Shown in pieces: positions 40,489 to 61,652 of a stretch of DNA of 64,000 nt. The position numbers and the translations under genes were made by a program. This DNA comes from Tagaea sp. (GTDB lineage: Bacteria; Pseudomonadota; Alphaproteobacteria; CACIAM-22H2). The notes beneath the pieces were generated by a model, which did no database searches, was not told the origin of the DNA, and was given only the letters and a program-made list of their open reading frames with translations. Position 1 is the first letter of the stretch, and each line of letters opens with the position of its first letter. The stretch spans positions 1,248,001 to 1,312,000 of the forward strand of contig CBDIIB010000004.1 in assembly GCA_965279525.1 (NCBI GenBank), in the 5' to 3' direction.

Positions 40489-40594
40489 CGGCTTATGTAT
40501 CTGTCGATCGGGTGTAGTGGATCGATCAAGTTCGCGCCTCCTCCGCCGGCCGGGCGTTGTGCCGCTTCGGTCCGGAATGTCCAAAAACTTGACA

Positions 40595-40650
40595 CTTCCA
40601 TCGGAATGGAACAACTACCATCTGGTCTCCAATCCATAACCACTGGATAT
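40595..40650. promoter_or_regulatory. tctB/lysR divergent region with LysR box and a second palindrome
   Basis: T-N11-A box ATAAC-CACTG-GATAT at 40636-40650; TTCCAT-CGGA-ATGGAA at 40596-40611 next to TTGACA (40589-94). Confidence 0.55.
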
Positions 40651-43230: not shown

Positions 43231-43286
43231 CCGCCCGCCGCCGAAATCCAATACTCGCAACCAAAGACACAATGGGAGGAAGTCCG

Positions 43287-44237: not shown

Positions 44238-44247
44238 GGCTCGGAAC

Positions 44248-46288: not shown

Positions 46289-46362
46289 TATTTGATCAAA
46301 GATTGACTCTATAAACATAATTATGCACGCTGTTATCCAATAATCCGGGCTATTTGATCAAA
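46289..46362 (+). promoter_or_regulatory. Promoter flanked by two identical palindromic operators
   Basis: TATTTGATCAAA at 46289-46300 and 46351-46362; TTGACT at 46303-08; AT-rich island. Confidence 0.7.
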
Positions 46363-46384
46363 ACCGGACCGGTTGAGGATACGC

Positions 46385-47044
46385 ATGCTGCCGGAGATCG
46401 AGGAAGGGCCGATCTGTGACCGTTTACGCCAGGACATACTGTCCGGGGTGTTTCCGTTTGGCGGCCGACTCAAGATCGACGAGCTTGCGGCACGCTACAC
46501 GACAAGCCATATGCCGATTCGCGAAGCGCTTCGCCAACTCCAGGGCGAGGGTCTCGTCAATGTCGAGCCGAACCGGGGCGCCCGCGTACGAGCAGTCGAT
46601 GTCGAGTTCGTGCGCGACCTGTTCGACCTGCGAATCGCACTCGAGGCGATGCTGGCGAGGCGCGCGGCAGAGAGGATCGTCTCTTCACAACTCGATGAAA
46701 TCCGCCGGATTGAATCCGACCTCGAGGCAAGCGCCGCCCGGTCCGACTTTGCCGCGGTTCTTGTCGCCAACCAAGCGTTCCATGCAGTTATCAACAATGC
46801 CGCCGGAAACGTCGAAGCGATACGAATCCTCGACCGCCACTGGAACATCATTGTCGCGCTTTGGGGACGTCATGGTTATGGCGAGGAACGTGTCGCAGGG
46901 GTGATCTCCGACCACCGGCAGATCATCGTGGCACTATCCCAGCGCGATGCAGAAGGTGCGGCGATCCTTCAGACCGCACACGCGGCAAAGGCCAAGCAGG
47001 AGATGCTGCGCAGGATCCAGGCGGCCGAAGTGGGGCTGCAATGA
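46385..47044 (+). CDS. GntR-family regulator (FadR/FCD subfamily)
   Basis: S.MPIREAL..L..EGLV...PNRGA.V HTH; FCD domain with N..FH and H..I residues; GAGG SD. Confidence 0.92.
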   Translation: MLPEIEEGPICDRLRQDILSGVFPFGGRLKIDELAARYTTSHMPIREALRQLQGEGLVNVEPNRGARVRAVDVEFVRDLFDLRIALEAMLARRAAERIVSSQLDEIRRIESDLEASAARSDFAAVLVANQAFHAVINNAAGNVEAIRILDRHWNIIVALWGRHGYGEERVAGVISDHRQIIVALSQRDAEGAAILQTAHAAKAKQEMLRRIQAAEVGLQ

Positions 47045-48168
47045 CGGTCGCGACAATCCGTTCCATTGACGGCCATGCCGTCCGAGCCAGCGCGAAAACC
47101 ATCTGGGCTTTCGTCCGCATATGCGACTCCGAGGGCAACTTCGGCTGGGGCGAAGCGACGCTCGCAGGTCAAGAAAGCCGGCTAGCGGCAGCATTGGCAC
47201 CTATAGCTGCAGGTTTGCTCGGCACCAGTGCGCTTCCGAGTGACAACCCGCTTGGGCGCTGCGGCATAAGCCGCACAGATCGAGCCGGTGCCGCGATCGC
47301 CAGCGCGCTCGACCAAGCACTATGGGATGCCGCAGGACGCCGCGAGGGCCGGCCGATGCGCGAAGCCATCGGAACGCCGGTGCTCGACAAGATTCCACTC
47401 TACGCGAACATCAACAGACGGACAGTCGACCGAACCCCGGCAGGCTTCGCCGCCAGCGCGCGAAAGGCGATTGCTGACGGATTCGAGACGGTGAAGATTG
47501 CGCCTTTCGATGCCGTCCGGCCAGGAAGCGGCGACTACGTCACGGAAGGGATCGCGCGTGCCGCAGCAGTCCGCACCGAGATCGGACCGTCACGACGTCT
47601 TTTCATCGACTGCCATTGGCGCTTCGACCTTGCCAATGCGTCGATGGCACTCGACGCATTGGCCGAACTCGGAGTCTCCTGGTTCGAATGCCCGCTGCCG
47701 GAGCACCCGGAAAACTTCGAAGGTCTCAAGCAGCTGCGCGCACGGGCGAACAGGATCGGCGCGGTGCTGGCAGGATGCGAGACGGAAACCACGCTTGAGG
47801 GATTCCGGCCTTTCATCGATGCCGGCACCTATGACGTACTGATGCCCGATATCAAGTATGCTGGAGGCATAGCCGAATTCCGGCGGACTGCTGAATACGC
47901 ATCGACGCACGGCATGAAAGTGGCGCCTCACAATCCGAGCGGACCCGTGTCTCACGTCGCGAGTCTCCAACTCTGCGCGACACTGCCCGGAATGACCATT
48001 CTCGAACACCAATACGACGAGAGTCCTGCCTTCACCTCCATCGTGTCGGACCAATTGCCACGTACCCGTCACGGATCCAGCGAGTTGCCAACAGGCCCCG
48101 GGCTCGGCATCGCGCTCGACTCCGCAAAGCTTTGTCCGCTTTCTGAACTTGGCGGACCGTCGGCGTGA
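47041..48168 (+). CDS. Mandelate racemase/enolase-superfamily acid-sugar dehydratase (DgoD-like)
   Basis: GWGEAT, DQALWD, YANIN, VKIAPFD, metal ligands IDCH / FECP / GCE, MPD, PHN, LE. Confidence 0.88.
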   Translation: MTVATIRSIDGHAVRASAKTIWAFVRICDSEGNFGWGEATLAGQESRLAAALAPIAAGLLGTSALPSDNPLGRCGISRTDRAGAAIASALDQALWDAAGRREGRPMREAIGTPVLDKIPLYANINRRTVDRTPAGFAASARKAIADGFETVKIAPFDAVRPGSGDYVTEGIARAAAVRTEIGPSRRLFIDCHWRFDLANASMALDALAELGVSWFECPLPEHPENFEGLKQLRARANRIGAVLAGCETETTLEGFRPFIDAGTYDVLMPDIKYAGGIAEFRRTAEYASTHGMKVAPHNPSGPVSHVASLQLCATLPGMTILEHQYDESPAFTSIVSDQLPRTRHGSSELPTGPGLGIALDSAKLCPLSELGGPSA

Positions 48169-48941
48169 TCGCCCTCCACCACGTCCGCAGGCTTGCCGAG
48201 TTCGGCCTCGCATTGGGGGTTGTCGGCATCGCGTGGCATGCGGTGGCGCTACGTGTCGCGAACGCGACCCTTGTTCCCGCGCCGCTCGCCGTCGGCAAGG
48301 CATGGCTGGAACTTCTCCAAAGTGATTTGCCGACCGACATCGCTGCCAGCCTCGTACATCTTGCGACCGGATATGGCGCCGGTGCGACGCTCGGCTTGGC
48401 ACTTGCGGTGCTGTGCGCCCGATTCGAGATCGTCGATGCGATCGCCGACCCGTTCATGGAACTCCTGCGGCCAATCGGCGCAATCGCATGGATCCCGATC
48501 GCGATCATCTTCTTCGGTATCGGACGCGGCGTTCCGATCTTCCTGATTTTTTACGCTTCGGCCTTTCCGATTTTCGTCAATACGCTGGCGGGAATCCGGC
48601 AAGTCGATCTGAACCTCCTCAATGCCGCGCGGTCACTGGGAGCCCCGCCGCGTATGGTCGTCACGCATGTCGTTTTGCCGGCGGCATTGCCGTTGGTGCT
48701 CGCAGGTGCTCGCCTCAGCCTTGGTGTCGCATGGGCCGCGATGGTTGCCGCCGAGCTCACCGGCGCAGATGCGGGCCTCGGATGGCGGATCTTCTGGTAT
48801 CAGGAGTTTTTCGCCATGGACAAGGTGATGGCGGTGATCCTGTCGATTGGCGTTCTCGGTTACGCGCTCGATATGGTCCTGCGGCGCATCCAGTCAGAGC
48901 TCACACGCTGGAGTGCCGATACCCGCATGGAGGCCAGATGA
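48165..48941 (+). CDS. NitT/TauT ABC permease
   Basis: LRPIGAIAWIP, AARSLGA, LPAALP, AAEL. Confidence 0.92.
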   Translation: MIALHHVRRLAEFGLALGVVGIAWHAVALRVANATLVPAPLAVGKAWLELLQSDLPTDIAASLVHLATGYGAGATLGLALAVLCARFEIVDAIADPFMELLRPIGAIAWIPIAIIFFGIGRGVPIFLIFYASAFPIFVNTLAGIRQVDLNLLNAARSLGAPPRMVVTHVVLPAALPLVLAGARLSLGVAWAAMVAAELTGADAGLGWRIFWYQEFFAMDKVMAVILSIGVLGYALDMVLRRIQSELTRWSADTRMEAR

Positions 48942-49717
48942 CGCTGAATCAGCGCCGGGCCGCACCGCTTGTTTTCTTCTCGATTGTCCTGGTCGCATGG
49001 GAAGCGGGCGTCCATGCCACAGGATCAGCGAGAATCGCGCCATACCCGGTTGGCATCGCCGAGGCGGCCGTACGTGCGCTCGCGGACGGCACACTACTGA
49101 CCGCCATTGCCGGCAGCCTGCAGCGGGTCACGACCGGATTCGTGATCGCGGCTCTGCTCGGCATTCCGCTCGGCCTGCTCATGGGGCTCGCCGAACCCGT
49201 CCGCCGTGCTCTCGACCCGATCGTCGACTCGCTACGTGCGATCGCACCGATCGCTTGGATACCGATGGCGCTGCTCTGGCTTGGCATCCGCGGAAATGCC
49301 GCGCTGTTTATCGTCGCATACGCCGCCTTCTTCCCGTTCGTGCTCAATACAATTCAGGCAGTCCGGCTCATCGACCGTCGCCTGGTCGACGCCGGGCGGG
49401 CGCTCGGCGCCGGGCGATGGCTGACATTGCGCGCGATCATCATCCCTGGAGCGCTACCCGTCGTGCTCACCGGCGCACGAATCGCGATGGCATTCGCATG
49501 GGGATCGATCATCGCGGCAGAGATGGCGATCGGCATCAAGGTCAATCCGGGTGGAGCGGCAACTGTTGGGTTGGGGCAACTTATGGTCAATACTCTCTAC
49601 ATAAAACGGGACATAAACGGCCTTGTCCTCTACATGGCCAGCATCGGACTTATCAGCATGGCGATTGACTATGGCGTTCGCTCGCTCCTGCGCGCGGTGA
49701 CCCCATGGCAGAAATGA
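48938..49717 (+). CDS. NitT/TauT ABC permease
   Basis: LRAIAPIAWIP, AGRALGA, IPGALP, AAEM. Confidence 0.92.
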   Translation: MTLNQRRAAPLVFFSIVLVAWEAGVHATGSARIAPYPVGIAEAAVRALADGTLLTAIAGSLQRVTTGFVIAALLGIPLGLLMGLAEPVRRALDPIVDSLRAIAPIAWIPMALLWLGIRGNAALFIVAYAAFFPFVLNTIQAVRLIDRRLVDAGRALGAGRWLTLRAIIIPGALPVVLTGARIAMAFAWGSIIAAEMAIGIKVNPGGAATVGLGQLMVNTLYIKRDINGLVLYMASIGLISMAIDYGVRSLLRAVTPWQK

Positions 49718-50520
49718 GCGCGCCCAAGATCGAGGCGATTGGCCTCGGGAAGACCTACGTTTCGGCCCGCAAGGGAACGCAGGTCGAAGCACTGCGTGAC
49801 GTGTCGTTCCAGGTCATGCCGAACGAGTTCGTGTCGATCGTCGGACCCTCGGGCTGCGGAAAGTCGACACTCCTATCTCTTGTCGCAGGATTTTCAACAC
49901 CTTCGTCCGGCGCCATCCGCTTCGACGGCCGGACGATCACGGGACCAGGCCCGGAGCGAGGCGTGATGTTCCAAGACTACGCCCTGTTTCCATGGCGAAC
50001 GGTCCGCGGAAACATCGAATTCGGCCCGCTTGCCCGGGGCCTCGACACCGCACGACGGATCGATCTCGTCCGGCGGAATATCGAGATGGTGGGACTTGCG
50101 GGATTCGAGGATCGATATCCGCACGAACTCTCCGGCGGCATGCGGCAGCGCTGCGCCCTCGCTCGCCTGCTCGCCAACGAGCCGGAGGTCTGGCTCATGG
50201 ATGAGCCGCTTGCGGCCGTTGACTTGCAGACGCGCGTTATCCTGCAGGACGAGCTTCTCCGACTGTGGGGTGATGCAAGCTTCGGGGTCGAACGGAAATC
50301 GGTGCTTTTCGTCACACATGGAATCGACGAAGCCGTCTACCTGTCCGACCGCGTGGTTGTGCTCGGCCGCAGGCCGGGCCAGATCAAGGAGATCGTCACG
50401 GTCGACCTGCCTCGTCCGCGCGTCGGTATGCGCTCGTCGCCCGAGGTGGCTCGGCTCGTCGAACACATCTGGAACCTGATCCGCGCAGAGGCCGCGCGGG
50501 CGATCGTCGAAGAGCCATAG
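49714..50520 (+). CDS. NitT/TauT ABC ATP-binding protein
   Basis: GPSGCGKST, YPHELSGGMRQR, MDEP, VTHGIDEA. Confidence 0.94.
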   Translation: MSAPKIEAIGLGKTYVSARKGTQVEALRDVSFQVMPNEFVSIVGPSGCGKSTLLSLVAGFSTPSSGAIRFDGRTITGPGPERGVMFQDYALFPWRTVRGNIEFGPLARGLDTARRIDLVRRNIEMVGLAGFEDRYPHELSGGMRQRCALARLLANEPEVWLMDEPLAAVDLQTRVILQDELLRLWGDASFGVERKSVLFVTHGIDEAVYLSDRVVVLGRRPGQIKEIVTVDLPRPRVGMRSSPEVARLVEHIWNLIRAEAARAIVEEP

Positions 50521-50557
50521 AAACCAGAAACGCAAAACCAAAACCCGGAGGAACCCA

Positions 50558-51775
50558 ATGGAACGCGATGCGAATACGACACGACGTTCGGTCCTTAAGG
50601 CTGGCGGCGCCGCTGCCCTGGCGGCATTGCCGCTCTTCCGTGCCAGCCCGTCGCTCGCACAGGCACTGAAGATGTCGATGGGAGTCGGCCTCACGAATGA
50701 CGGAGCGCCGCTCGTTTTCGCGATGCAGCGCGATAAGCTCCTGGAAAAGGCGGCGGAAGAACTCGGCATCCGCATCGATGCCGAGTACCTGAACTTCCCG
50801 GTGCTGCTCCGGATGCTCCAGGGACTTGCCGCCGGCCAGCTCGACATCGGCATGCTCGGCTCGACGCCGACGATCCGCAACCTCGCCCAACCGAACCCGG
50901 CCGTGCCGATCGCGATTGGCGGCGGCGGGATCAAGTTTCCACTGCAGGTCCCGAAAGGATCGCCGATCAGGAAACTCGACGACCTGCGCGGCAAGACGAT
51001 CCTGACGATCGTCGGATCCGATCTCCATCTTGTGCTGATGCTGATGTTGAAAGCACATTTCGGGACAGACGACGTCAAGGAACTGAACATCACGGTCAAG
51101 AACATCCAGGCATTCACCGAATTGACGCGCGCGCAGCCCGGGATCGATGCCGTTCTGAACGTCGATCCGGCTGCCCGGGGTGCCGAAAACGCAGGCGAGC
51201 TCGTGGCGCTCGTGCGCAACGACGGATCGACCGGTCCGGCCTACGACGGCCCGGAAGGAAAGGGCGAGGGTCACAAGGTCGCGAGCTTCAGCAAGACCGG
51301 ATTTCATCCTGAAGCCTACTATCCGCACCGGATCTGGTGGGTCGCGCGCGAGCAGTTCATGCGCGAGAACCCGAAGGCCGTCGTGGCGCTTCTCGTCGCC
51401 AATGCGCGTGCCGTCCAGTTGACGACAAAGATGACGACGGACGAGGTGATCGATCTTGCAAACAAGGAATGGTTCAGCGACCGCGCGGCCCAGCGCCCCT
51501 ATGTCGAGAACATCCTTTACCGCAAGCGCGGCTGGTCGTGGATCACCGAGGGAGACGCGCGCTCCCTGATAGGCATGTCGAAAGTCAAGACGATCTTCCA
51601 AAGCGAGCTCAATCCTGACTCCGTCAAGCGCACGCTTGCTCTCGGAGCGCCGCTTTCTCGAGAGGCTTGGGAACGGGTCGGCAAGGACCCCGCCCCGGCC
51701 GCATTTTCCGACCGCACGGCGCCAGACACCCGTGGCGCACCGGTATGGGAAGTCGACACTTGGAAGCTCGCATGA
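50558..51775 (+). CDS. NitT/TauT ABC substrate-binding protein (Tat-type signal)
   Basis: TRRSVLK leader, GQLDIG.LG.TP, SPIRKLDDLRGK; GGAGG SD. Confidence 0.85.
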   Translation: MERDANTTRRSVLKAGGAAALAALPLFRASPSLAQALKMSMGVGLTNDGAPLVFAMQRDKLLEKAAEELGIRIDAEYLNFPVLLRMLQGLAAGQLDIGMLGSTPTIRNLAQPNPAVPIAIGGGGIKFPLQVPKGSPIRKLDDLRGKTILTIVGSDLHLVLMLMLKAHFGTDDVKELNITVKNIQAFTELTRAQPGIDAVLNVDPAARGAENAGELVALVRNDGSTGPAYDGPEGKGEGHKVASFSKTGFHPEAYYPHRIWWVAREQFMRENPKAVVALLVANARAVQLTTKMTTDEVIDLANKEWFSDRAAQRPYVENILYRKRGWSWITEGDARSLIGMSKVKTIFQSELNPDSVKRTLALGAPLSREAWERVGKDPAPAAFSDRTAPDTRGAPVWEVDTWKLA

Positions 51776-52674
51776 CGAAGGCAGACGTCCAGACGATCGG
51801 TCGTCACGAGTCCGTCGCGATCCACCATGGCAATGCCGTCACAGGCGAATGCCCGTTCTGGGACGTCCGTTCCGGCATGCTGTGGTGGGTCGATATCCAG
51901 GGACAACGACTTCTTGGCTGTTCGCCGGACAGCGGCGAGACGGTCGAACACGCGCTTCCGAGCATGCCGGGGCTGCTGGTGGGGCGAAGGAAAGGTGGGC
52001 TGCTCGTCGGCCTCGAAGACGGCCTCTATCCATTTGATCCCGCTGGCGGGCTCGGTGAACGCATTTTCGCCGTCGAGGACGACATGCCGGCGACGCGGAT
52101 CAACGAAGGCAAGCCCGATCCAGTCGGCAGGCTCTGGTTCGGCACGATGGACAAATCCGGATCCGGCGCACCGCTCGGCTCGCTCTATCGGCTCGACCTT
52201 GACGGTCGCCTGACACGTGTCCGCACGGAGGTCCGCATCCCGAATGCGATTGATTTCACGACGGACGGATCCCAGTTCTTTTTCTGCGATACGCGCAGCC
52301 GGACGATCGAGGTCGCGGCATACGATCAGGTAGCCGGAACTGCCGGCGCGCCGCGAACGTTCGCGCAGTTCGCCGAGCCCGGCGCACCAGATGGCAGCTG
52401 CATCGATGCCGAAGGCGGACTTTGGGTGGCCGTGATCGACGCCGGTAGGATCGAGCGGTTCCGGCCGGACGGCACGCTCGATCTCGTCGTGGAACTTCCG
52501 GTTTCGCGCCCCACAATGCCCACGCTCGGCGGGCCTGACGGACGCACCCTGTTCGTGACGTCCCAACGCCGCGTCCTGTCCGCGCAGGAACTCGCCCGCC
52601 AACCGCTTGCCGGCGATCTCATCGCAGTCCGCGTACCCTATTCCGCACGCCCGCCTTTCCTCGCCGCGTTCTAG
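51772..52674 (+). CDS. SMP-30/gluconolactonase/LRE-family sugar lactonase
   Basis: GECPFWD, WVDI, RINEG..D..GR.W.GTM, PN, PDG...D.EG..W, FVTS. Confidence 0.92.
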   Translation: MTKADVQTIGRHESVAIHHGNAVTGECPFWDVRSGMLWWVDIQGQRLLGCSPDSGETVEHALPSMPGLLVGRRKGGLLVGLEDGLYPFDPAGGLGERIFAVEDDMPATRINEGKPDPVGRLWFGTMDKSGSGAPLGSLYRLDLDGRLTRVRTEVRIPNAIDFTTDGSQFFFCDTRSRTIEVAAYDQVAGTAGAPRTFAQFAEPGAPDGSCIDAEGGLWVAVIDAGRIERFRPDGTLDLVVELPVSRPTMPTLGGPDGRTLFVTSQRRVLSAQELARQPLAGDLIAVRVPYSARPPFLAAF

Positions 52675-53030
52675 GACTGGCCCGCGCGCAGGCTGAATAC
52701 GCGTTCCAGCGCGATCCGCAGCGGGCCATCGCCGTCCTGGAGGAGAATGTCGGACATGTACGCCTGCCAGCGCCGCCAGACCGGGTTTCCGCGAAACGCA
52801 TCCATCTGATGGTCGGCACGACGAACGACAAACGCGAACAGCAGGCCATACTCGCGCATCAGATGGATTTCGAAATGGAGAATGCCTGCGCCTTCGATCG
52901 TCGCGCGCATTTCCGGCCATATCTCGTCGTGCCGCTTCTCGTACTCGGCCTCGGTGCCCGGCCGCAGGCGCAGGCAAAAAGCGATACTCTCGGCCGCAGG
53001 CAACGGCCCGATCAGGTTAACGGCGTTCAT
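52671..53030 (-). CDS. rhaM: L-rhamnose mutarotase family protein
   Basis: LRPG..AEY..RH..IWPE, GI....I, LF, WQ.YM. Confidence 0.85.
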   Translation of the reverse strand: MNAVNLIGPLPAAESIAFCLRLRPGTEAEYEKRHDEIWPEMRATIEGAGILHFEIHLMREYGLLFAFVVRRADHQMDAFRGNPVWRRWQAYMSDILLQDGDGPLRIALERVFSLRAGQS

Positions 53031-53059
53031 ATGCCCTCCTTCAATCGGAAAATCGGCAC

Positions 53060-53089
53060 TTGAGATATGACTGATATCTCAGTTATAGA
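53060..53089. promoter_or_regulatory. Divergent promoter with GntR operator
   Basis: Perfect 8-5-8 palindrome TGAGATAT-GACTG-ATATCTCA at 53061-53081 within TTGAGA-N18-TATAGA. Confidence 0.7.
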
Positions 53090-53096
53090 TCAAGCC

Positions 53097-55219: not shown

Positions 55220-55269
55220 AACTGAAACAACGGCCGACAGAGCCGAACGACGCAAGGAGGAAAACGAAT

Positions 55270-56295
55270 ATGCTCAAGAAACTGATCGCCGCATTCGCGC
55301 TGCTTGGCGCGAGTGTTGCCACGGCCCAGCCACTCGAGATCAAGATCGGCGCTGCCTATGCTACCGACCATGCCGCCGCTTTCATCGGCGTCGAACGCGG
55401 CATATTCGCCAAGCACGGTCTCGACGCGAAAATAGTCATGTATCAGACCGGCGTCGAGATGATCAACGGACTGCTCGCCAACGCGCAGGACGTCAACATC
55501 ATGGGATCAATTCCGTTCCTCGCAGGCGTGTCGCGCGGGCAGCCCATCGTCCTGATCGGCCATCTGCACGGCGACGCGCTGTCGACGAACTACTCGCAGA
55601 ACAACGCGCTGATCACGACACCGCAGGGCGGTGTCCGCAAAGACGATCTTCAAAGCCTGCGGGGCAAGAAGATCGGCCTTGCGCGCGGAACGGGCGCGGA
55701 AGGTTATCTTCTCGGCATTCTCGCCCAGGCAGGTCTCAAGGACACGGACATGACGCTCGTGAATTTGCGCCCAGCCGATACAGCCACGGCTCTTCGCCAG
55801 GGAGACGTGCACGCTGTTGCGGCATGGGAACCATGGGCGACCGTCACGACACTTCGCACGCCCGGCGCCATCGAGATTATCCGGGGCAACTGCAATAGCT
55901 GCTATGATCCGGGATCCATCCTGACCACACGCGCGACGATCGCCCAGAAGTCGGAACAGCTCCGCCGTTTCATGGTCGCATTTTCCGAGTCGCACCAGTG
56001 GCTCCGCCAGAACTACGACGCGGCAGCGGAAATCAACATGCGCTGGATCACCGGGATCGAAATGGACATCATGAAAGTGGCCATCCGGAACTCCCTCTAC
56101 GATCTCCGGGTGACCAAAAACACGCTCGAAGGCTATGACAAGAAGACGATTCCGGCCCTGGTTGCCGACAAGCGGATGGCGCGTTCGCTGCCCGCAGCGA
56201 GCGTCGTAGATGCCCAATTCTACAAGCACGTCGAGGCTGTTGCACCGCAGTTTTTCTCCGATCTGAAGCCGGTCCCGGCGGACCGCCGTCTCTGA
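55270..56295 (+). CDS. NitT/TauT ABC substrate-binding protein
   Basis: Signal peptide, GIFAKHGLD, LRGKKIG...GT, AWEPW; AGGAGG SD. Confidence 0.9.
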   Translation: MLKKLIAAFALLGASVATAQPLEIKIGAAYATDHAAAFIGVERGIFAKHGLDAKIVMYQTGVEMINGLLANAQDVNIMGSIPFLAGVSRGQPIVLIGHLHGDALSTNYSQNNALITTPQGGVRKDDLQSLRGKKIGLARGTGAEGYLLGILAQAGLKDTDMTLVNLRPADTATALRQGDVHAVAAWEPWATVTTLRTPGAIEIIRGNCNSCYDPGSILTTRATIAQKSEQLRRFMVAFSESHQWLRQNYDAAAEINMRWITGIEMDIMKVAIRNSLYDLRVTKNTLEGYDKKTIPALVADKRMARSLPAASVVDAQFYKHVEAVAPQFFSDLKPVPADRRL

Positions 56296-56308
56296 GAAGG
56301 TTGGAGAG

Positions 56309-57097
56309 ATGACGAATGTTCGGATCGCCGCACGCGATCTAAGACTGGAGTACCGCGACGAGACGCGTGGCGAGCGTCACGTCGCGGTCGACCATCTGTC
56401 GCTCGACGTTCTCGCCGACGAGTTTTTCTGTGTCGTCGGTCCGAGCGGTTGCGGCAAGTCCACGCTGATATCGGCGATCGCGGGCTTCCTCAAGCCGCGT
56501 GCCGGAACCCTGACTCTCGACGGGAAATCGATCGACGGACCCGGGGCCGACCGCGGTGTCGTATTTCAGGAGTATGCCCTACTCCCCTGGATGACGGTTC
56601 TCGACAACGTGGCCCTTGGCCCCAAACTGAAGGGCGTTCCGAAAGCCGAGCGTCATGAACGTGCGCGACACTATCTTGAAATGGCGAACCTGGCGGACGC
56701 AGCACAGAAGTATCCCCACGAACTTTCGGGCGGCATGAAGCAGCGTACGGCCGTCGCGCGGACGCTGGCAAACGAGCCTGAAGTGATGCTGATGGACGAG
56801 CCGTTTGCGGCGATCGATGCGCAGACGCGAATGACCCTCCAAGAGGAGCTGCTCCGCATCTGGGCCGCCGCGCGGATTACGGTCCTTTTCGTAACGCACA
56901 GTGTCGAGGAAGCCTGTTTTCTTGGCGACCGGGTAGCCATTCTCACACCCGGACCTGGTCGCGTGAAGGAGATCGTCGACGTGCCGATCGCCCGCGACCG
57001 CCGCAGTTGGGCGGAACTGGGTGCCGATCCCGAGTTTACCCGCATCAAGGATCATGTCCTTGCGTCGGTCCGCGGCGTGGACCGACAGGCAGCATGA
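56309..57097 (+). CDS. NitT/TauT ABC ATP-binding protein
   Basis: GPSGCGKST, YPHELSGGMKQR, MDEPF, VTHSVEEA. Confidence 0.94.
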   Translation: MTNVRIAARDLRLEYRDETRGERHVAVDHLSLDVLADEFFCVVGPSGCGKSTLISAIAGFLKPRAGTLTLDGKSIDGPGADRGVVFQEYALLPWMTVLDNVALGPKLKGVPKAERHERARHYLEMANLADAAQKYPHELSGGMKQRTAVARTLANEPEVMLMDEPFAAIDAQTRMTLQEELLRIWAAARITVLFVTHSVEEACFLGDRVAILTPGPGRVKEIVDVPIARDRRSWAELGADPEFTRIKDHVLASVRGVDRQAA

Positions 57098-57417
57098 TCG
57101 ATCGCCGGCATCCGTTGTTCCGGACTTTCGCTTCCACAATGGCCGTACTCGCCGTCGCTGCGGGATGGACGGCGTGGGGGCGCAGCCACGCCGACTCCCT
57201 CGCCCAAGCAGGCGGGGTTGGAACAGCCAAGGGTCACTACATCGTCACGCTGGCGTTTGCGCCGGAAGGATTTCACGTGACTCGTCTCCAGGCAATCGGA
57301 CGCCTGATCGAGGTGCGCGGCTCGGAGATATTCCTGATGGATGTCGATCCAACGGCACTACGCGAAGCCGCAACGGCCTACTGGGTCCGCGGGGTTCGGC
57401 AATGGCCGGGTCGATAG
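57094..57417 (+). CDS. Small hypothetical membrane-anchored protein inside ABC operon
   Basis: ATGA overlap with the ATPase stop and overlap with the permease start; N-terminal hydrophobic helix and compact alpha/beta-like C-terminal domain. Confidence 0.75.
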   Translation: MIDRRHPLFRTFASTMAVLAVAAGWTAWGRSHADSLAQAGGVGTAKGHYIVTLAFAPEGFHVTRLQAIGRLIEVRGSEIFLMDVDPTALREAATAYWVRGVRQWPGR

Positions 57418-58220
57418 CGTCGTCCGGGATTCCACTGCGCAAGAAGCTGGAGCGCCCTGCCAAAGGGGCATTTGGCATCCTGCTTTTCCTGCTGGCGTGG
57501 CAGGTCTCGGTTCCGCTTGTCGGGCTTGAGCCCTATTTCTACCCGGCACCGTCCGACGTCGCGGCCGCATTCGTCGATCTGGTGCGCAAGGGGATTCTTC
57601 CGGTCTATGTCATCGATAGCCTGGAGCGCTATACCGTTGGCGTCGCGATCGGTGCGTGTGCCGGCATCTTTTTCGGAATCCTCATCGGGCTCAACGCGAC
57701 CGCCTCGCGGCTCCTGTCACCGACGATCAACTTCCTTTTCGCGATCGTTGAGGTCGCATGGATACCGATTTTCGTTATCTGGTGGGGCTACGGTTACAAG
57801 ACGATCCTCATCGCGCTGACATACGTGGTGTTCTTTCCAGTCGTCTACAACACGCTGGTTGGAGTGCGGACGGTTCCGCAGCCATTGATCAATGCCGTCC
57901 GGGTTCTTGGCGCGAACCGATGGCAGGTCCTGACCAACGTGATCCTTCCGGCTGCCCTGCCGAGCATAATTACGGGTCTGCGTGTTGGCGCCGGCTTTGC
58001 GTTCCGAGGGCTGATCTTCGCGGAAATCGTCGCGGCAAAAACCGGTCTCGGCTATCTGATTTTCGAAGGAGCGCAGACCCAGCAGACGGCACGTACGATC
58101 GTGGGCATGATCTCGGTCGGTCTGCTCTGGTTGTTGATCGACCAGTTCTACCTGAAGCCACTTGAGCGGGCGACCATCGAGCGCTGGGGCCTCGTAATCG
58201 AGGCGGAGCAGCGCGCATGA
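57402..58220 (+). CDS. NitT/TauT ABC permease
   Basis: YPAPS, VAWIP, AVRVLGA, LPAALP, AE....TGLG. Confidence 0.92.
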   Translation: MAGSIASSGIPLRKKLERPAKGAFGILLFLLAWQVSVPLVGLEPYFYPAPSDVAAAFVDLVRKGILPVYVIDSLERYTVGVAIGACAGIFFGILIGLNATASRLLSPTINFLFAIVEVAWIPIFVIWWGYGYKTILIALTYVVFFPVVYNTLVGVRTVPQPLINAVRVLGANRWQVLTNVILPAALPSIITGLRVGAGFAFRGLIFAEIVAAKTGLGYLIFEGAQTQQTARTIVGMISVGLLWLLIDQFYLKPLERATIERWGLVIEAEQRA

Positions 58221-58978
58221 AAGCCGATTCGCTGATCGGGCTTGTTCCGTTCGGGCTGGCGCTCGCGGCCTGGGCGATTCTGCCCATGGTGATTGACTAT
58301 CCATCCTACATGCTGCCGCCACTGCCGGACGTCTGGATCCATCTCCAGGAGATCGTGTCGGACGGAACTCTCGCAGACCATGTCGTCAGCTCTCTGGGCC
58401 GGCTCGCGCTCGGCTTCGCCCTAGGTGCCGGCATTGCCGTACCGCTCGGCATTGCGATCGCGCTCAACCGGCACGTCGCCGACACTCTGAAGCCTCTGTT
58501 GACGTTTCTCCAGTCGATCGCCGGGATTGCGTGGGTTCCGCTGGCAATCATCTGGTTCGGAATCGGTATCGGCTCCGTCGTCTTCGTCATCGCGAACACG
58601 ATTTTCTTTGCTACGCTCTACAACACGGTCGTCGGCGTACAGGCGATCCCTCAGGCGCTGCACCGGGCGGTCCGTTCGCTGGGTGGACGCGGACTTAGTC
58701 TTGCCACGGTCCTGATTCTGCCCGGCGCCCTCGTCCAGCTCATCGTCGGTTTCCGTACCGCAATGGCCTACGGATGGCGTGCATTGGTCGCCGGCGAGAT
58801 GATCGCCGGGACCAACGGGCTCGGATACATGACGATCGAAGCGGTTCAATGGTATCGCACAGAAACGGTCCTGATCGGCATGATCGCAATCGGACTGATC
58901 TGGTTGGTAATGGATCGTCTCGTATTTGTCCCGATCGAGCGCGCGACGGTCCAGCGTTGGGGGATCGTCCAGCGATGA
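58217..58978 (+). CDS. NitT/TauT ABC permease
   Basis: LPP, IAWVP, WFGIG, AVRSLG, GEMIAG..GLG. Confidence 0.92.
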   Translation: MKADSLIGLVPFGLALAAWAILPMVIDYPSYMLPPLPDVWIHLQEIVSDGTLADHVVSSLGRLALGFALGAGIAVPLGIAIALNRHVADTLKPLLTFLQSIAGIAWVPLAIIWFGIGIGSVVFVIANTIFFATLYNTVVGVQAIPQALHRAVRSLGGRGLSLATVLILPGALVQLIVGFRTAMAYGWRALVAGEMIAGTNGLGYMTIEAVQWYRTETVLIGMIAIGLIWLVMDRLVFVPIERATVQRWGIVQR

Positions 58979-59910
58979 AAATCCCGTACGAGCGCCTCGG
59001 TCTTGGCGGTGCCGCTCTCGGCGTGCTCTTCAACCCTGTCGACGATGCGGACGCCCTGGCCGCGATCGACGCAGCCTGGGATGCAGGCATACGGACGTTC
59101 GATACATCCCCGCTCTATGGCGGCGGACTATCCGAAGAAAGACTCGGCCGCGCGCTATCGCGACGGCCGCGCAACGCCTTCTTCCTGTCGACCAAGACAG
59201 GTGTCAACCGTCCTTACGGGCAGGCTGCCGCCCCGCCGGGTGGGGCCCGCCGGGCAGCCGACGTCTGGGACTATTCGCCGGATGCGACACGAAGCTCCGT
59301 GAAGACCAGTCTCGGGCGCCTGGCAACCGACCGGCTCGATCTTGTCCACCTCCACGATGTCGAAGGCCGGACCGATGCAGCCATGGCCGCTTATCCGGAA
59401 CTTGAGCGCCTGCGTTCGGCGGGCACGATTCAGGGCATCGGGATCGGGGCGAACAAAGTCGAAGCACCACTTGATCTGATGGCACGGGCGCACTTCGACG
59501 CCGTTCTTGTGGCAGGCCGGTATACTCTTCTTGACCAAACGATGCTCCATCTCGTTCCGCTCGCCGAGAATGCCGGGACGCGCTTGATCGTCGGTGGCGC
59601 CTTCAATTCGGGCATCCTTGCGACCGGTGCAGTTGCCGGCGCCATGTTCCATTATGACCCGGCGCCGGCAGGCATTCTGGACCGAACAAGGGCGATTGAG
59701 GGGCACTGCGCAGCCCACGGCGTCCCCTTGCGGGCGGCCGCGCTGCAGTTCCCGCTGGCCCATCCGGCAGTCCATACGCTTCTGCTCGGAGCACGCAACC
59801 CCGCCGAACTCCGGGACTGCCTGGAAATGCTCGCGTTCCCCATTCCGGCAGCCTTCTGGCATTCGCTTCAGCAGGCTGGACTCGTCGACCGAGCATGTCC
59901 GCTGCCATGA
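58975..59910 (+). CDS. Aldo/keto reductase, D-threo-aldose (L-fucose/L-galactose) 1-dehydrogenase-like
   Basis: LGLGGA.LG, FDTSPLYG.GLSE, STK, DYS, LHD, AGRYTLLDQ, FNSGILA, AALQFPL.HP. Confidence 0.88.
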   Translation: MKIPYERLGLGGAALGVLFNPVDDADALAAIDAAWDAGIRTFDTSPLYGGGLSEERLGRALSRRPRNAFFLSTKTGVNRPYGQAAAPPGGARRAADVWDYSPDATRSSVKTSLGRLATDRLDLVHLHDVEGRTDAAMAAYPELERLRSAGTIQGIGIGANKVEAPLDLMARAHFDAVLVAGRYTLLDQTMLHLVPLAENAGTRLIVGGAFNSGILATGAVAGAMFHYDPAPAGILDRTRAIEGHCAAHGVPLRAAALQFPLAHPAVHTLLLGARNPAELRDCLEMLAFPIPAAFWHSLQQAGLVDRACPLP

Positions 59911-60743
59911 TCGACGCACACATCCATTTCTGGGACATGCGTCGACAGGACGACATCCTGATCGTCCGTCGCGAGCCGTCGCTGGCACGTCAGGCCATGC
60001 CGGACGACCTGCGGCCACTGATGGCCGATGCCGGGGTGAACGGTGCCGTCGCGATCCAGTCGGCGCCGGACTTCGGCGAGACAGACCATCTGATCGAGGT
60101 CAGCGCGCGCACGGCCGAGATATTTGGAATTGTCGGATGGGTCGACCTTGCGGCAGACGAGGTGCGCGAGCGCATCCGCGCTCTTGCAGCACGGCCGAAA
60201 ATCGTCGGCGTACGCGCGATGCTCAACCGCGTCGATCCGGTCGGCTGGCTTGCCGAAGATCGGGTTCGTCCGGGTCTCGCGGCACTTGTCGAGGCTGGTC
60301 TCTCACTCGATGTCATCGCACGCGCCGAACATGCGCCGGCGATCGCAAAAGTGGCCGCTGCACTTCCCGACCTCCGCATCATCGTCGACCATGGGGCGAG
60401 CGCACCTTTGCGTCGATCCGACAGGCAGGACTGGCTCGAGGCTATCGAGCAGATCGCGGCCTTTCCATCGATTTCCACGAAGTTTTCCGGACTTGCCGAA
60501 GAAGCTCCTGAGAGTTGGGCTCCGGAGACGCTCGAACCGGCATTCCGGCACTTGCTTGCTTGCTTCGGTCCGGCCAGAATCATGTGGGCCAGCAATTGGC
60601 CGGTCATCAATCTGCGCGGCGGTTATGCCGGCTGGGCTTCGGCCAGCCGGACCCTGCTCGACAGGGCCGCGCTGGCACATCATGATCGGCAGGCCATCGA
60701 AGATGGCAATGCACGACGCATCTACAGGATCGCAGCGGTCTAG
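59907..60743 (+). CDS. Amidohydrolase_2 protein, L-fucono-1,5-lactonase-like
   Basis: IDAHIHFWD, VGWVDL, GVR, VDH, KFSG, FG..R.MWASNWP. Confidence 0.87.
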   Translation: MIDAHIHFWDMRRQDDILIVRREPSLARQAMPDDLRPLMADAGVNGAVAIQSAPDFGETDHLIEVSARTAEIFGIVGWVDLAADEVRERIRALAARPKIVGVRAMLNRVDPVGWLAEDRVRPGLAALVEAGLSLDVIARAEHAPAIAKVAAALPDLRIIVDHGASAPLRRSDRQDWLEAIEQIAAFPSISTKFSGLAEEAPESWAPETLEPAFRHLLACFGPARIMWASNWPVINLRGGYAGWASASRTLLDRAALAHHDRQAIEDGNARRIYRIAAV

Positions 60744-60746
60744 CCA

Positions 60747-61652
60747 CTAGGATTTCCCCGCATAGCGGATCTTGACGCCGGCCTCTTCCTCGCGCAGGCG
60801 CACGACACTCGAGATGTCGTCGGCGTCGTATCCCTTGTCGCATGTCTCCTTGAGCGACGCCTGCAGGCCTAGACCCACCGGCGTACCGACACCGGCGTCT
60901 TTCGCCATTGCCAGAGCCAGACGGACGTCCTTTGCAGCCAGCCTTGTCATGAATCCGCGCCGGAAGTCGCCCACAAAGCTCTTCACAGGCTGGATCTTGA
61001 GAAGGTGCGCGCTGGAGGCTCCCGTACTGCCGACCAGTTCCACAATCTTCTCGAGCGACAGTCCGGCTTTCATTCCGAAGGCGAGAGCTTCGGCGTGCAG
61101 CGCGAGAATCCCGGCCGAGACGTAGTTGTTGACGAGCTTGAGGGCGTGACCGTTACCGAGCGGTCCGGCATGGACGATGTAGTTCCCCATTACGTCTAGG
61201 ACCGGGCGAACCTCGGCGACATCCGCCAGCTCCCCGCCGACCATGATCGCAAGAGTCCCCTTCTCGGCGTCCTCGACGGCACGTGCCACGGGCGCGTCGA
61301 CCATCCGTGCGCCGGCCGCATGGATCGCTGCGGCAATTCGACGGGTCGTGCCAGGGTCGATCGTACTCATATCCATGTAGATCTTGCCCGGCCGGATCGC
61401 AGACGCGATCCCGTCGGGCCCTGTCGCGACGGTCTCGACGTCCGGCGAGTCCGGAAGCATCGTGATCACGATATCGCTTGCCGCTGCGACCTCTGACGGT
61501 CGCCTCATCGCTCGCACGCCACCACGCACGAACGCATCCATAGCCGACGCATTGCTATCGCAGACGATCAGAGGAAATCCGGCCTTCTGGATGTTACGTG
61601 CCATCGGCGCTCCAATCGTGCCGATGCCGATGAATCCGATGGTCATTTTCAT
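60747..61652 (-). CDS. Beta-hydroxyacid dehydrogenase family reductase (YihU/sulfolactaldehyde reductase-like)
   Basis: GFIGIG.IG.PMA, ITMLP, DMSTI.P, DAPVAR, KLVNNY, FM..LA.KD. Confidence 0.88.
   Translation of the reverse strand: MKMTIGFIGIGTIGAPMARNIQKAGFPLIVCDSNASAMDAFVRGGVRAMRRPSEVAAASDIVITMLPDSPDVETVATGPDGIASAIRPGKIYMDMSTIDPGTTRRIAAAIHAAGARMVDAPVARAVEDAEKGTLAIMVGGELADVAEVRPVLDVMGNYIVHAGPLGNGHALKLVNNYVSAGILALHAEALAFGMKAGLSLEKIVELVGSTGASSAHLLKIQPVKSFVGDFRRGFMTRLAAKDVRLALAMAKDAGVGTPVGLGLQASLKETCDKGYDADDISSVVRLREEEAGVKIRYAGKS

Follow-up and report, generated by a model that had tools for sequence, protein, structure and literature searches.

Tagaea sp., a member of the Alphaproteobacteria, contains on contig CBDIIB010000004.1 two adjacent operons that combine a sulfatase without a signal peptide, ATP-binding cassette (ABC) importers of the NitT/TauT type and a set of enzymes related to sugar and sugar-acid catabolism. 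The window considered here comprises 64,000 nt of this contig (unless stated otherwise, positions refer to it), and its genes were called from open reading frames (ORFs) together with Pfam and NCBIfam profiles. An earlier note had read the two operons as a pathway for anion-type uptake, intracellular desulfation and non-phosphorylative oxidation of a sulfated or sulfonated sugar. The genes that it named are all present where it had placed them, and the linkage between sulfatase, importer and sugar enzymes stands, while its C-sulfonate option, the role of a YihU-like reductase, the assignment of the first ABC system to the sulfatase and the claimed absence of a polysaccharide-degrading enzyme fared less well. 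On balance, we slightly favour the view that the region forms the centre of a larger island devoted to small sulfated carbohydrates, which would be imported intact and desulfated in the cytoplasm.

Gene Content of the Two Operons

The operon that contains the sulfatase (second operon) lies on the plus strand and starts with a FadR-type regulator with GntR and FCD domains in Pfam (GntR2, 53067-53747). It is followed by an S1 formylglycine-type sulfatase (53744-55219; Pfam Sulfatase, 149.6 bits), a solute-binding protein (SBP2, 55270-56295), an ABC ATPase (56309-57097; Pfam ABC_tran), two NitT/TauT-type permeases (57399-58220 and 58217-58978; Pfam BPD_transp_1), an aldo/keto reductase (AKR, 58975-59910; Pfam) and an Amidohydrolase_2 lactonase (59895-60743; Pfam, 164.9 bits). 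NCBIfam equivalog cut-offs were missed by every listed protein of both operons, and the names used here therefore hold at family level only. SBP2 is of the SsuA/NMT1 type and carries a Sec-type leader (Pfam NMT1 83.9 bits, NMT1_2 68.8 bits; NCBIfam SsuA_fam 134.6 bits against a cut-off of 163.5). Its top match in the PDB is SsuA (2x26, 49 bits), and its solved relatives also include 3e4r, titled 'Nitrate transport protein'. The ATPase reaches 245 bits with the taurine-ABC ATPase model of NCBIfam (cut-off 357), and the permeases match SaoP, TauC, NrtB and SsuC below the cut-offs.

The AKR is probably an aldose 1-dehydrogenase. Its nearest solved relatives, in a range of 109-78 bits, are the L-galactose dehydrogenases 9w6y (109 bits) and 7lh6 (99 bits), and no curated model was passed. 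The sole NCBIfam match of the Amidohydrolase_2 lactonase is L-fucono-1,5-lactonase, at 155.2 bits against a cut-off of 400, so that the protein is related to this enzyme rather than identified with it. Its top PDB match is 4dlf (89 bits), labelled only 'Amidohydrolase 2', which we take to be the L-fucono-1,5-lactonase of Burkholderia. A RhaM-family mutarotase is encoded on the minus strand between the two operons (52671-53030; Pfam rhaM 79.9 bits; NCBIfam YiiL_rotase 63.9 bits against a cut-off of 99.6).

The interval of about 300 bp between ATPase and permeases of the second operon is filled by a 107-aa ORF (SMALL, 57094-57417, plus strand), which shares a 4-nt overlap with the stop of the ATPase gene. 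It has a single hydrophobic segment near the N-terminus, its C-terminal domain (..FHVTRLQAIGRLIEV..) is conserved, and no Pfam match was found for it at E ≤ 10. In a comparison set of 78 loci that encode relatives of the sulfatase (46-90% identity; a scan with one genome per species, loci labelled L001 and so on), SMALL occupies the same position, after the ATPase and ahead of the permeases, in 18, all of the NitT type, and it is also present in the metagenome locus L108. Judged by this recurrence, SMALL is a conserved putative membrane ORF outside known families, which the earlier note had overlooked.

The first operon, also on the plus strand, is headed by another FadR-type regulator (GntR and FCD in Pfam; GntR1, 46373-47044, with an ATG at 46385). 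It continues with a DgoD-like acid-sugar dehydratase of the MR/MLE enolase superfamily (47041-48168; Pfam MR_MLE_C, 178.7 bits), two NitT/TauT-type ABC permeases (48165-48941 and 48938-49717; Pfam BPD_transp_1), an ABC ATPase (49705-50520; Pfam ABC_tran), a 405-aa binding protein (SBP1, 50558-51775) and a lactonase of the SMP-30/gluconolactonase family (51772-52674; Pfam SGL, 249.9 bits; top PDB match 7plb, 151 bits). The top NCBIfam match of the dehydratase is galactonate dehydratase, at 153.7 bits against a cut-off of 311. SBP1 is a divergent protein of the NMT1/SsuA type (Pfam NMT1 33.8 bits; SsuA_fam 78.8 bits against 163.5; weak PDB matches of at most 27 bits) with a leader resembling that of the twin-arginine translocation pathway (Pfam TAT_signal 20.3 bits, under cut-off). 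The best NCBIfam matches of the permeases are SaoP, TauC, SsuC and NrtB, those of the ATPase SaoA, NrtCD and the taurine ABC ATPase (PRK11248), all under cut-off. The 'Sao' names refer to a selenoprotein-associated transporter and were discarded as a source of substrate information. At both systems, the NMT1 and NMT1_2 matches of the SBPs, the TauC/SsuC/NrtB-like permeases and the ATPases indicate membership of NitT/TauT, at family level only.

Genes overlap by 4 nt in both operons (47041/47044, 48165/48168, 53744/53747, 58217/58220 and 58975/58978), which fits co-translation. Rfam returned zero matches in the window.

A reductase of the HIBADH family converges on the second operon from the minus strand (60747-61652). 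Its best NCBIfam model is sulfolactaldehyde reductase (YihU), at 214.6 bits against a cut-off of 348, followed by near-equal scores for tartronate-semialdehyde reductase (209 bits, cut-off 397, and 206.6 bits) and HIBADH (203.5 bits). A LacI regulator and CUT1 permeases are encoded upstream in the same orientation, and the reductase is probably the last gene of this neighbouring LacI/CUT1-ABC operon, so that its membership in the pathway is uncertain. The earlier note had counted this reductase as a YihU-like part of the pathway, a claim that finds little support in a score below the cut-off and a position in a separate operon.

A Clade of Cytoplasmic Sulfatases

The sulfatase begins with MTKRPNLLFLFSDQH and has no signal peptide. 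Its top PDB match is the choline sulfatase 6fny (182 bits, aligned over residues 2-463), and it scores 283.4 bits against the choline-sulfatase model of NCBIfam, below the cut-off of 433.45; it is thus not called BetC by this model. The maturation motif C53-V-P-S-R57 agrees with the C/S-x-P-x-R consensus, with C53 and R57 invariant in the 72 aligned clade members and P55 kept by 70 of them. The metal and catalytic residues are also conserved, D13, Q14, N74, H103, H197, D289, H290 and K302 being invariant in the 72 sequences. The equivalents of Asp14, Gln15, Asn75, His201, Asp296, His297 and Lys309 of the Sinorhizobium meliloti choline sulfatase (SmCS) were read from the 6fny alignment, with the equivalences of Asp14, Asp296 and His297 being our own reading of it.

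Two positions set the clade apart. The sulfate-binding lysine of the G-K-x-H motif (GKMH in choline sulfatase) is replaced by Arg101 (G-R-L-H) in 72 of 72 sequences. From the alignment, Arg101 is a conservative substitution that marks the clade, and we do not take it as a loss of sulfatase function. The second position is aligned, in a gapped stretch, to Glu386 of choline sulfatase, which binds the quaternary ammonium group according to the residue roles given in the available part of the structural study (PMC5870055). It is occupied by Asp380 in the Tagaea protein and by Asp in 58 of the 72 sequences, with His, Ala, Gly or Thr in the others.

The genome encodes a machinery for maturation: two matches to the formylglycine-generating enzyme (FGE, PF03781) exceed the cut-off, with 168 and 134 bits. 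Nine S1 sulfatases are over the cut-off in the genome, and all sulfatases of the island lack signal peptides. Together with the FGE, this supports the intracellular desulfation that had been proposed.

The relationship to choline sulfatases raises the question of whether the sulfatase and its importer simply scavenge sulfur from choline-O-sulfate, alkyl sulfates or aryl sulfates, next to a catabolic route for unsulfated L-fucose or L-galactose-type sugars, with their adjacency being a by-product of island formation. The nearest solved and NCBIfam relatives of the enzyme are indeed choline sulfatases, the position equivalent to Glu386 is acidic, and AKR-lactonase pairs are widespread without sulfatases. 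However, the choline-sulfatase cut-off is missed (283 against 433), and the Pfam scans of the locus revealed neither bet genes nor an OpuAC-type binding protein. The 4-nt overlaps and a single conserved operator join sulfatase, importer, AKR and lactonase, and the linkage to sugar-acid enzymes extends across Alphaproteobacteria, an order of Gammaproteobacteria and, for the dehydratase, Chloroflexota. The gene context argues against choline sulfate as the substrate, and we regard this explanation as very improbable.

Conservation of the Gene Set

The closest of the 78 loci in the comparison set stem from Tagaea sp., the others from Rhodospirillales, Geminicoccaceae, Rhodobacterales, Hyphomicrobiales, a metagenome-assembled genome (MAG) of the Arenicellales and Chloroflexota. 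Synteny was assigned by local tblastn of the window proteins against these loci. Neighbouring families were counted within 10 kb of the sulfatase by six-frame ORF clustering, removal of shadow clusters and Pfam annotation. ORF cluster 1 (231 members) was rejected in this step as an antisense artefact of high-GC DNA.

Both operons are fully syntenic in L001 (83-98% protein identity), and the order GntR2-sulfatase-SBP2-ATPase-permease-permease is found in about 20 further loci. The arrangement is therefore not due to chance. Synteny of the second operon reaches Tagaea MAGs, other Rhodospirillales, the Arenicellales (L071) and a member of the Paracoccaceae (L052), and in 20 loci the sulfatase gene comes after one for a GntR2 homologue (≥40% identity). 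Genes for AKR and lactonase follow the conserved set in L001-L006 and L071, the AKR alone in L009 and L031, and in L003 and L005 the next gene after the lactonase, in the same orientation, encodes the mutarotase (tblastn). In an unrooted tree, a branch with 95/94 support separates 13 AKRs of sulfatase operons from 19 other AKRs, which are usually paired with a lactonase in the absence of a sulfatase. This split fits a specialised substrate, although the evidence is weak because the tree is unrooted and the sulfatase-linked set has very long branches.

Across the comparison set, the sulfatase is accompanied by MR/MLE genes in 33 of the 78 loci, by tripartite tricarboxylate transporter (TTT) genes in 32, by NitT-type permeases in 21, by an AKR in 14, by a UxaA/GarD-type dehydratase in 12, by an Amidohydrolase_2 in 11, by a DHDPS-type protein in seven and by an RraA-type protein in six. 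The gap between the sulfatase and the nearest MR/MLE gene has quartiles of 6, 30 and 2277 bp (33 loci), which makes the dehydratase usually an immediate neighbour. If only the 53 loci of at least 15 kb are considered, a NitT or TTT system is present in 37 and an MR/MLE gene in 26. As a rough control, the 4.35-Mb genome of Tagaea itself contains 10 TctA and about 17 MR/MLE genes, corresponding to an expectation of about 5% and 8%, respectively, per 21.5 kb. The co-occurrence of the genes in other genomes, on which the earlier note had made its proposal depend, was thus observed: across genomes, members of the sulfatase clade are linked with anion-type importers and with sugar-oxidising and sugar-acid enzymes.

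The two operons of the window are also connected to each other. In L008, L015, L016 and L017, the gene immediately ahead of the sulfatase encodes an orthologue of the first-operon dehydratase (57-60% identity), which in L015 and L016 is itself preceded by a GntR1 orthologue. GntR1 orthologues with 72-89% identity head the dehydratase gene in L001, L015 and L016 (tblastn). In the metagenome locus L173, dehydratase, SMP-30 lactonase (an orthologue with 70% identity), sulfatase and an uncharacterised protein described below (UNK) are encoded on one strand. The linkage assumed for the two operons is borne out by these loci, and the adjacency of dehydratase and sulfatase is the main evidence that the operons belong together. 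The same cannot be said of the first ABC system with SBP1, which had been proposed as a partner of the sulfatase: apart from L001, the only comparative link is a system with 33% identity in L033.

The family composition of the first operon could also be explained by a sulfo-Entner-Doudoroff-type route for a C-sulfonated sugar, such as a sulfoquinovose isomer or sulfofucose, in which the HIBADH-family reductase produces 2,3-dihydroxypropane-1-sulfonate from sulfolactaldehyde and the sulfatase operon is unrelated. NitT/TauT systems carry sulfonates, and the best NCBIfam model of the reductase is sulfolactaldehyde reductase. The SMP-30, MR/MLE and ABC importer families of the first operon are shared with the sulfofucose pathway, as far as it is described in the available part of PMC12421959. 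However, the dehydratase orthologue is coupled to an O-sulfatase in the four loci named above and shares its strand in L173, and the reductase belongs to another operon and falls short of the cut-off (214.6 against 348). The seven HpcH (PF03328) matches of the genome are all located outside C4:1.25-1.33 Mb and away from C5:1.18 Mb. Genes for a sulfite exporter, a C-S lyase, SuyAB or TauE were not seen in Pfam scans of the window, although no genome-wide search for them was made. S1 sulfatases do not cleave C-S bonds, and this, together with the lack of an HpcH aldolase in the island, leaves the C-sulfonate option of the earlier note weak; we consider it improbable.

Several loci of the comparison set show further gene associations. 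Four loci of Rhodobacterales/Paracoccaceae (L061, L065, L067 and L077) contain, at about 12.8-16.6 kb and downstream of a sulfatase-MR/MLE-UxaA group, a LarC-type nickel-insertion gene (PF01969) with conserved uncharacterised neighbours. This form of the cassette may thus include a 2-hydroxyacid racemase or epimerase that depends on a nickel pincer. In six loci of Chloroflexota (L054, L057, L063, L064, L074 and L078), the sulfatase is embedded among two to four MR/MLE genes of three clusters, together with a DegT-type aminotransferase, a DHDPS, an RraA-type aldolase, a short-chain dehydrogenase/reductase (SDR) and DUF2961; a TTT or NitT transporter was not seen within 10 kb in these loci.

A Predicted Glycosidase-Like Protein and Its TTT Operon

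Upstream of the first operon, on the plus strand, a LysR-type regulator (40655-41632) is followed by UNK, a conserved protein of 469 aa (41821-43230), and by the three components of a TTT system: the solute receptor TctC (43227-44237; Pfam TctC, 77 bits), the small membrane subunit TctB (44200-44760; Pfam TctB) and the large membrane subunit TctA (44757-46241; Pfam TctA, 446 bits). The regulator clusters (c28) with the Pfam-annotated LysR of L017 (HTH_1 and LysR_substrate), and the synteny of LysR and TTT genes is repeated in L008, L015 and L017. The stop of UNK overlaps the start of TctC by 4 nt, and UNK therefore heads an UNK-TctC-TctB-TctA operon. The gene had been masked by ORF cluster c52, an antisense artefact that was discarded once tblastx revealed the coding frame.

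UNK has no match in Pfam (E ≤ 10), in NCBIfam or among PDB sequences. No signal peptide was noted, by eye only, at its N-terminus (MTRFVGITIFPEY), and the protein is likely to be cytoplasmic. An AlphaFold2 model based on an 18-sequence alignment (pLDDT 91.1, pTM 0.91) shows an eight-stranded barrel, for which the top Foldseek match is the GH153 glycoside hydrolase (GH) domain of PgaB (E 7e-10). In VIA-align, the model matches GH153 of BpsB (6au1) with a Z of 24.9, a root-mean-square deviation of 3.4, 319 aligned residues and about 11-12% identity. Further matches are Cwp19 (5oq2, Z 22.8), a GH164 mannosidase (22.1), the fucosidase 6tvk (21.9), presumably of GH151, and the Bifidobacterium beta-galactosidase 4ucf (20.9), which we take to be a GH42 enzyme; identities across the named barrels are about 11-15%. 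By their titles, all of the 50 VIA-align matches listed are GH-type barrels or their kin (Z 24.9-16.4). One of the 30 nearest Atlas clusters to UNK carries PF02638 (GHL10) in 20% of its members. Invariant residues of UNK are located at or just past the C-terminal strand ends (E12, T37-Y40, S83, Q129/Q131, D198-E201, F309/P310, K334-W340 and H423). A GH-type (β/α)8 fold, as predicted by the model, would not itself demonstrate activity, and we read UNK as a predicted cytoplasmic glycosidase-like enzyme of a new family. UNK would share the overall (β/α)8 fold with the C-terminal GH153 domain of PgaB/BpsB and with GHL10/Cwp19-type barrels. It differs from GH153 by its low identity, its probable cytoplasmic location and its coupling to a sulfatase instead of exopolysaccharide export.

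The UNK family comprises at least 1650 sequence clusters at E ≤ 1e-5 (among 8000 candidates scored), all labelled 'hypothetical'. Of the 78 sulfatase loci, 22 contain UNK, in most cases immediately next to the sulfatase. In L008 and L017 the two genes overlap at the stop of the sulfatase, and in L007, L010, L018, L019 and L051 UNK follows after 45-82 nt. It lies just ahead of the sulfatase in L044 and L050, and is the last gene of the NitT-type operon in L009, L012 and L014. Among 400 evenly sampled other genomes of the class, only two contain UNK, and both are sulfatase loci of the comparison set. In a set of 80 metagenome loci seeded with UNK, 44 have at least 1.6 kb on either side and can be assessed. 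Here, a member of the sulfatase clade accompanies UNK in 7 of 7 loci at ≥60% UNK identity, in 2 of 11 at 55-60% and in 4 of 26 below 55%; any S1 sulfatase is found in 25 of the 44. The minimal cassette in many genomes consists of dehydratase, sulfatase, UNK and TTT, and lacks a dehydrogenase or lactonase.

Two observations on UNK homologues stand apart. An aldose 1-epimerase gene lies directly downstream of a distant homologue in L111 and L113. In L031 (17100-18510, minus strand), the homologue is split into four tblastn pieces in different frames, which could be a pseudogene or an assembly error.

The earlier note had seen no polysaccharide-degrading enzyme, a statement that leaves out of account the GH-like protein at 41821-43230 and its direct proximity to the sulfatase elsewhere. 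Besides a monosaccharide, a small sulfated glycoside may therefore serve as the substrate.

Candidate Operators and a Paralogous Operon

The palindrome TTTGATCAAA occurs twice upstream of GntR1 (46291-46300 and 46353-46362), the only exact matches in the window, and is a candidate GntR1 operator. The first copy overlaps a -35-like hexamer within a promoter-like site (46292-46321). The palindrome is conserved upstream of GntR1 in L001, L015 and L016, and a pattern search of the 4.35-Mb genome detected only four sites. The other two copies are located on contig C5, ahead of an operon for a GntR regulator (57% identity), an MR/MLE protein (46%), an SDR and a DHDPS. Its neighbours include a LysR regulator, another sulfatase, an SDR and a CUT1 ABC system. 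The DHDPS gene has a weak NCBIfam score to KdgD and, by its family, is a candidate for the aldolase missing from the window. The statement of the earlier note that no aldolase is visible has to be qualified by this candidate under the same operator elsewhere in the genome; HpcH aldolases were not found in the island. A few kb from this second sulfatase locus (L083, C5:1182001-1200000), a DncV-like nucleotidyltransferase with SMODS and AGS_C domains is encoded on the minus strand (12468-13877), which corresponds to a CBASS-type cyclic-oligonucleotide synthase.

A different palindrome, ACTGATATCTCAGT (53070-53083), lies between -35-like and -10-like elements and occurs once in the genome; it is the candidate operator of GntR2. 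Because it overlaps the ATG at 53067, the true start of GntR2 is probably at 53097 or 53109. The exact pattern ACTGA-N4-TCAGT is found in 12 of the 20 loci with a GntR2 homologue, and with one mismatch in two more. Both palindromes were first spotted by eye and then confirmed by pattern search; an automated inverted-repeat search of the two promoter regions found none at the settings used. The presence of two different operators suggests two different effectors, for example an imported sugar sulfate for GntR2 and an aldonate for GntR1.

A Possible Route for Sulfated Carbohydrates

In the favoured reading, a sulfated reducing sugar would enter the cell via the NitT/TauT-type ABC system of the second operon, consisting of SBP2, the ATPase, the 107-aa membrane protein and the two permeases, and GntR2 would leave ACTGA-N4-TCAGT. 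The mutarotase would provide the right anomer, the AKR would oxidise C1 to a lactone, and the Amidohydrolase_2 would open the lactone to the aldonate. The sulfatase could act in either order, removing the sulfate ester as soon as the sugar has entered or only once the sulfated aldonate has formed. The free aldonate would induce the GntR1 regulon via TTTGATCAAA, the MR/MLE dehydratase would yield a 2-keto-3-deoxy acid, and the paralogous C5 operon under the same operator, with its dehydratase, SDR and DHDPS-type aldolase, would complete the route to pyruvate and a C3 fragment. The TTT system with the GH-like UNK (41821-46241) and the first-operon ABC system with the SMP-30 lactonase would act as parallel entries, possibly for carboxylate-bearing forms, i.e., a sulfated glycoside, a sugar acid or a lactone.

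Gene content, its conservation, the catalytic residues of the sulfatase and the palindromes are observed, whereas we infer whether desulfation or oxidation comes first, which sugar is used and what each importer contributes. The sugar would most likely be an L-galacto-type hexose or a 6-deoxyhexose, as the sulfate of fucose, galactose or rhamnose, which is the weakest step of the proposal. TTT systems typically carry carboxylates and, since the minimal cassette also lacks a dehydrogenase and a lactonase, we lean towards a sulfatase that acts at or near the level of the sugar acid or on a glycoside with an acid part.

A carboxylate could already be part of the imported compound, if the substrate were a sulfated uronic or aldaric acid, or a disaccharide bearing one, instead of a neutral deoxyhexose or hexose sulfate. 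The TTT system would then import the carboxylate, the AKR would serve as uronate oxidase and the Amidohydrolase_2 as aldarolactone lactonase or isomerase. MR/MLE and UxaA/GarD enzymes would dehydrate the aldarate, the DHDPS protein would act like KdgD, and the HIBADH-family protein like tartronate-semialdehyde reductase. This is consistent with TTT systems in 32 of the 78 loci, with UxaA/GarD proteins in 12 of the 78 (top NCBIfam match galactarate dehydratase), with the 209 bits of the HIBADH-family reductase to 2-hydroxy-3-oxopropionate reductase and with the weak likeness of the C5 DHDPS to KdgD. Agrobacterium has an amidohydrolase-superfamily galactarolactone isomerase and an MR/MLE galactarolactone cycloisomerase, which also speaks for such a route. 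On the other hand, the characterised uronate dehydrogenases known to us are SDR-type proteins and not AKRs, the solved relatives of the AKR are L-galactose dehydrogenases, the only NCBIfam match of the lactonase is fuconolactonase, and a RhaM-type mutarotase accompanies the operon, with all scores being under the cut-offs. We consider a uronic or aldaric acid unlikely, and prefer the neutral sugar sulfate.

Several points weigh against this preference and against the pathway as a whole. All NCBIfam equivalog scores of the predicted enzymes are below the cut-offs. The combination of HIBADH with UxaA/GarD-type partners, DHDPS and MR/MLE fits a uronate or aldarate route and a deoxyhexose route equally well. 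With Asp at the Glu386-equivalent position in most clade members, a cationic group on the substrate is conceivable. SBP1, the first ABC system and the SMP-30 lactonase are found near the sulfatase in few loci (L001, distantly L033, L173 and L129), and L129 (15 kb) contains UNK and the GntR1-dehydratase-ABC set while the sulfatase is not present. UNK lies outside the ABC operon of the window, in L003 and L005 a search of the 10 kb around the operon did not reveal it, and its distant homologues occur in mixed, unrelated contexts. The 78 loci were chosen by their similarity to the sulfatase and include many close kin, so that the counts overstate the number of independent events, and the background rate for transporters and dehydratases stems from one genome.

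A more far-reaching interpretation is only tentative and, in our view, rather doubtful. The Arg101-marked sulfatase clade and UNK could form a dedicated 'cleave and desulfate' unit for abundant but unrecognised small sulfated glycosides or sugar acids, which would be imported by bacteria without polysaccharide-utilisation loci via TTT or via a NitT/TauT ABC system with a novel 107-aa subunit. UNK would then found a new GH family, and the sugar sulfate would be the first such substrate of a NitT/TauT system. Fragments of algal or cyanobacterial sulfated exopolymers are examples of possible sources of these glycosides.

Comparison with Known Systems

The sulfofucolytic Entner-Doudoroff pathway of Paracoccus wurundjeri, with SfcH, SfcD, SfcF, SfcE and an ABC importer, contains an SMP-30 lactonase (PF08450) and an MR/MLE dehydratase (PF13378/PF02746) and mirrors the sulfo-Entner-Doudoroff pathway of sulfoquinovose, according to the accessible part of its description (PMC12421959). 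PF08450, PF13378 and PF02746 are all encoded in the first operon, placing it close to these pathways at family level. The shared features would include the ABC import of an anionic 6-substituted hexose, oxidation at C1, ring opening by SMP-30, an MR/MLE DgoD-like dehydratase and an optional mutarotase. In contrast to the Sfc pathway as given there, which carries the C-sulfonate through to sulfolactaldehyde, the presumed O-sulfate would here be removed by an S1 sulfatase. The dehydrogenase of the window is an AKR instead of an SDR, and an additional Amidohydrolase_2 lactonase is present. The locus also lacks an HpcH (PF03328) aldolase, with a DHDPS-type aldolase candidate in the co-regulated operon elsewhere.

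Oxidative routes for L-fucose and L-galactose employ an AKR or SDR dehydrogenase, an Amidohydrolase_2 L-fucono/L-galactono-1,5-lactonase, a mutarotase and a dehydratase of the enolase superfamily or the UxaA type. The window shares a related AKR, a fuconolactonase-like lactonase, a RhaM-family mutarotase and an acid-sugar dehydratase with these routes. Unlike them, it combines these enzymes with a cytoplasmic sulfatase and with NitT/TauT or TTT importers in place of sugar-type importers, and the equivalog cut-offs are missed. A KEGG-based list for L-fucose degradation II is given in a study on fucoidan, which, in the part available, deals with extracellular degradation and free fucose and not with the import of sulfated monomers (PMC13668718).

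The concept of importing a sulfated monosaccharide released by other organisms and desulfating it inside the cell has a precedent in the GlcNAc-6-sulfate clusters of Bifidobacterium breve UCC2003, for which sulfated monosaccharide import, an intracellular sulfatase and cross-feeding are summarised in the accessible part of a review (PMC7326374). As far as that summary goes, B. breve differs from Tagaea in phylum and transporter type, and its route is ordinary amino-sugar catabolism without an oxidative sugar-acid route or a GH-like partner. The closest solved relative of the sulfatase itself is BetC of S. meliloti (6fny, 7pth and 6g5z), likewise a cytoplasmic Cys-type S1 sulfatase with the same catalytic residues in the available part of its description (PMC5870055). 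It differs from the present clade by the lysine of GKxH, by Glu386, and by betaine synthesis genes in place of the sugar and sugar-acid gene context. As regards maturation, B. breve uses an anaerobic radical-SAM system, whereas Tagaea has FGE.

In none of these nearest described systems do an S1 sulfatase, uptake via NitT/TauT or TTT, an oxidative route through sugar acids and UNK occur together, and no description of such a cluster was found in the open literature (subscription journals were not covered). The system would thus be a conserved variant of sulfated-carbohydrate catabolism with two unannotated components.

Sulfated glycans represent a large pool of carbon and sulfur. To our knowledge, their known degraders use secreted or periplasmic sulfatases together with polysaccharide-utilisation loci. 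The island points to a scavenger lifestyle instead, with import of the whole molecule via sulfonate- or carboxylate-type transporters, cytoplasmic desulfation and non-phosphorylative oxidation. An identified substrate would name a cross-feeding currency of freshwater and soil communities and would assign a function to widespread 'hypothetical' genes. The testable parts are the two SBPs, the TctC receptor, two repressors with defined candidate operators, the Arg-marked sulfatase clade and the two unannotated families.

The Surrounding Island

Based on the gene calls, the region is part of an island of about 60 kb with six predicted cytoplasmic sulfatases. Upstream of the LysR-TTT operon, a co-directional array on the minus strand (29260-40614) contains TctB-TctA-TctC, a CUT1 SBP with two permeases, DUF4432, sulfatases and a GntR/UTRA regulator. 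The second TTT system spans 37523-40614, and the block of CUT1 ABC genes, DUF4432 (33139-34629), two signal-less sulfatases (31670-33142 and 30136-31734) and GntR/UTRA spans 29260-37486. The TTT/CUT1/LysR part of this array is syntenic in L008, L015 and L017.

Further upstream, the minus strand encodes a third NitT/TauT ABC system with an SBP (22001-23119), two permeases and an ATPase (24607-25356). Three GFO/IDH/MocA oxidoreductases (19954-20973, 20970-21995 and 25369-26343) and a dienelactone hydrolase (26347-27168) lie on its flanks, and the group represents another sugar-type enzyme set on an anion-type importer.

In the 20 kb downstream (L081, C4:1310001-1330000; positions within that locus), the interval 5685-19619 encodes a GMC oxidoreductase, two CUT1 ABC systems and three more sulfatases that lack signal peptides. 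Grouped on a single strand are a GD_AH large subunit (18447-19619), a HIBADH, an SAF small subunit (the C-terminal part of ORF 17235-17957) and an AKR (16213-17238), and the AKR-HIBADH-GD_AH set recurs in L015 and L016. For this split GD_AH and SAF dehydratase, which lies 15 kb downstream, NCBIfam returned only galactarate dehydratase, below the cut-off. A split GD_AH and SAF pair is, we assume, the architecture of both the SuyAB sulfolactate sulfo-lyase and the relatives of GarD.

The first part of the window (1-18143) encodes sugar and peptide functions unrelated to the island and contains a ribose-type ABC system, FGGY and PfkB kinases (3817-6443), an SDR and ketopantoate-reductase-like genes. 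Several long ORFs without a Pfam match, among them 9188-11380 and 16854-18143, may be spurious. An Opp-type ABC system with an Asparaginase_2 gene occupies positions 11876-16767.

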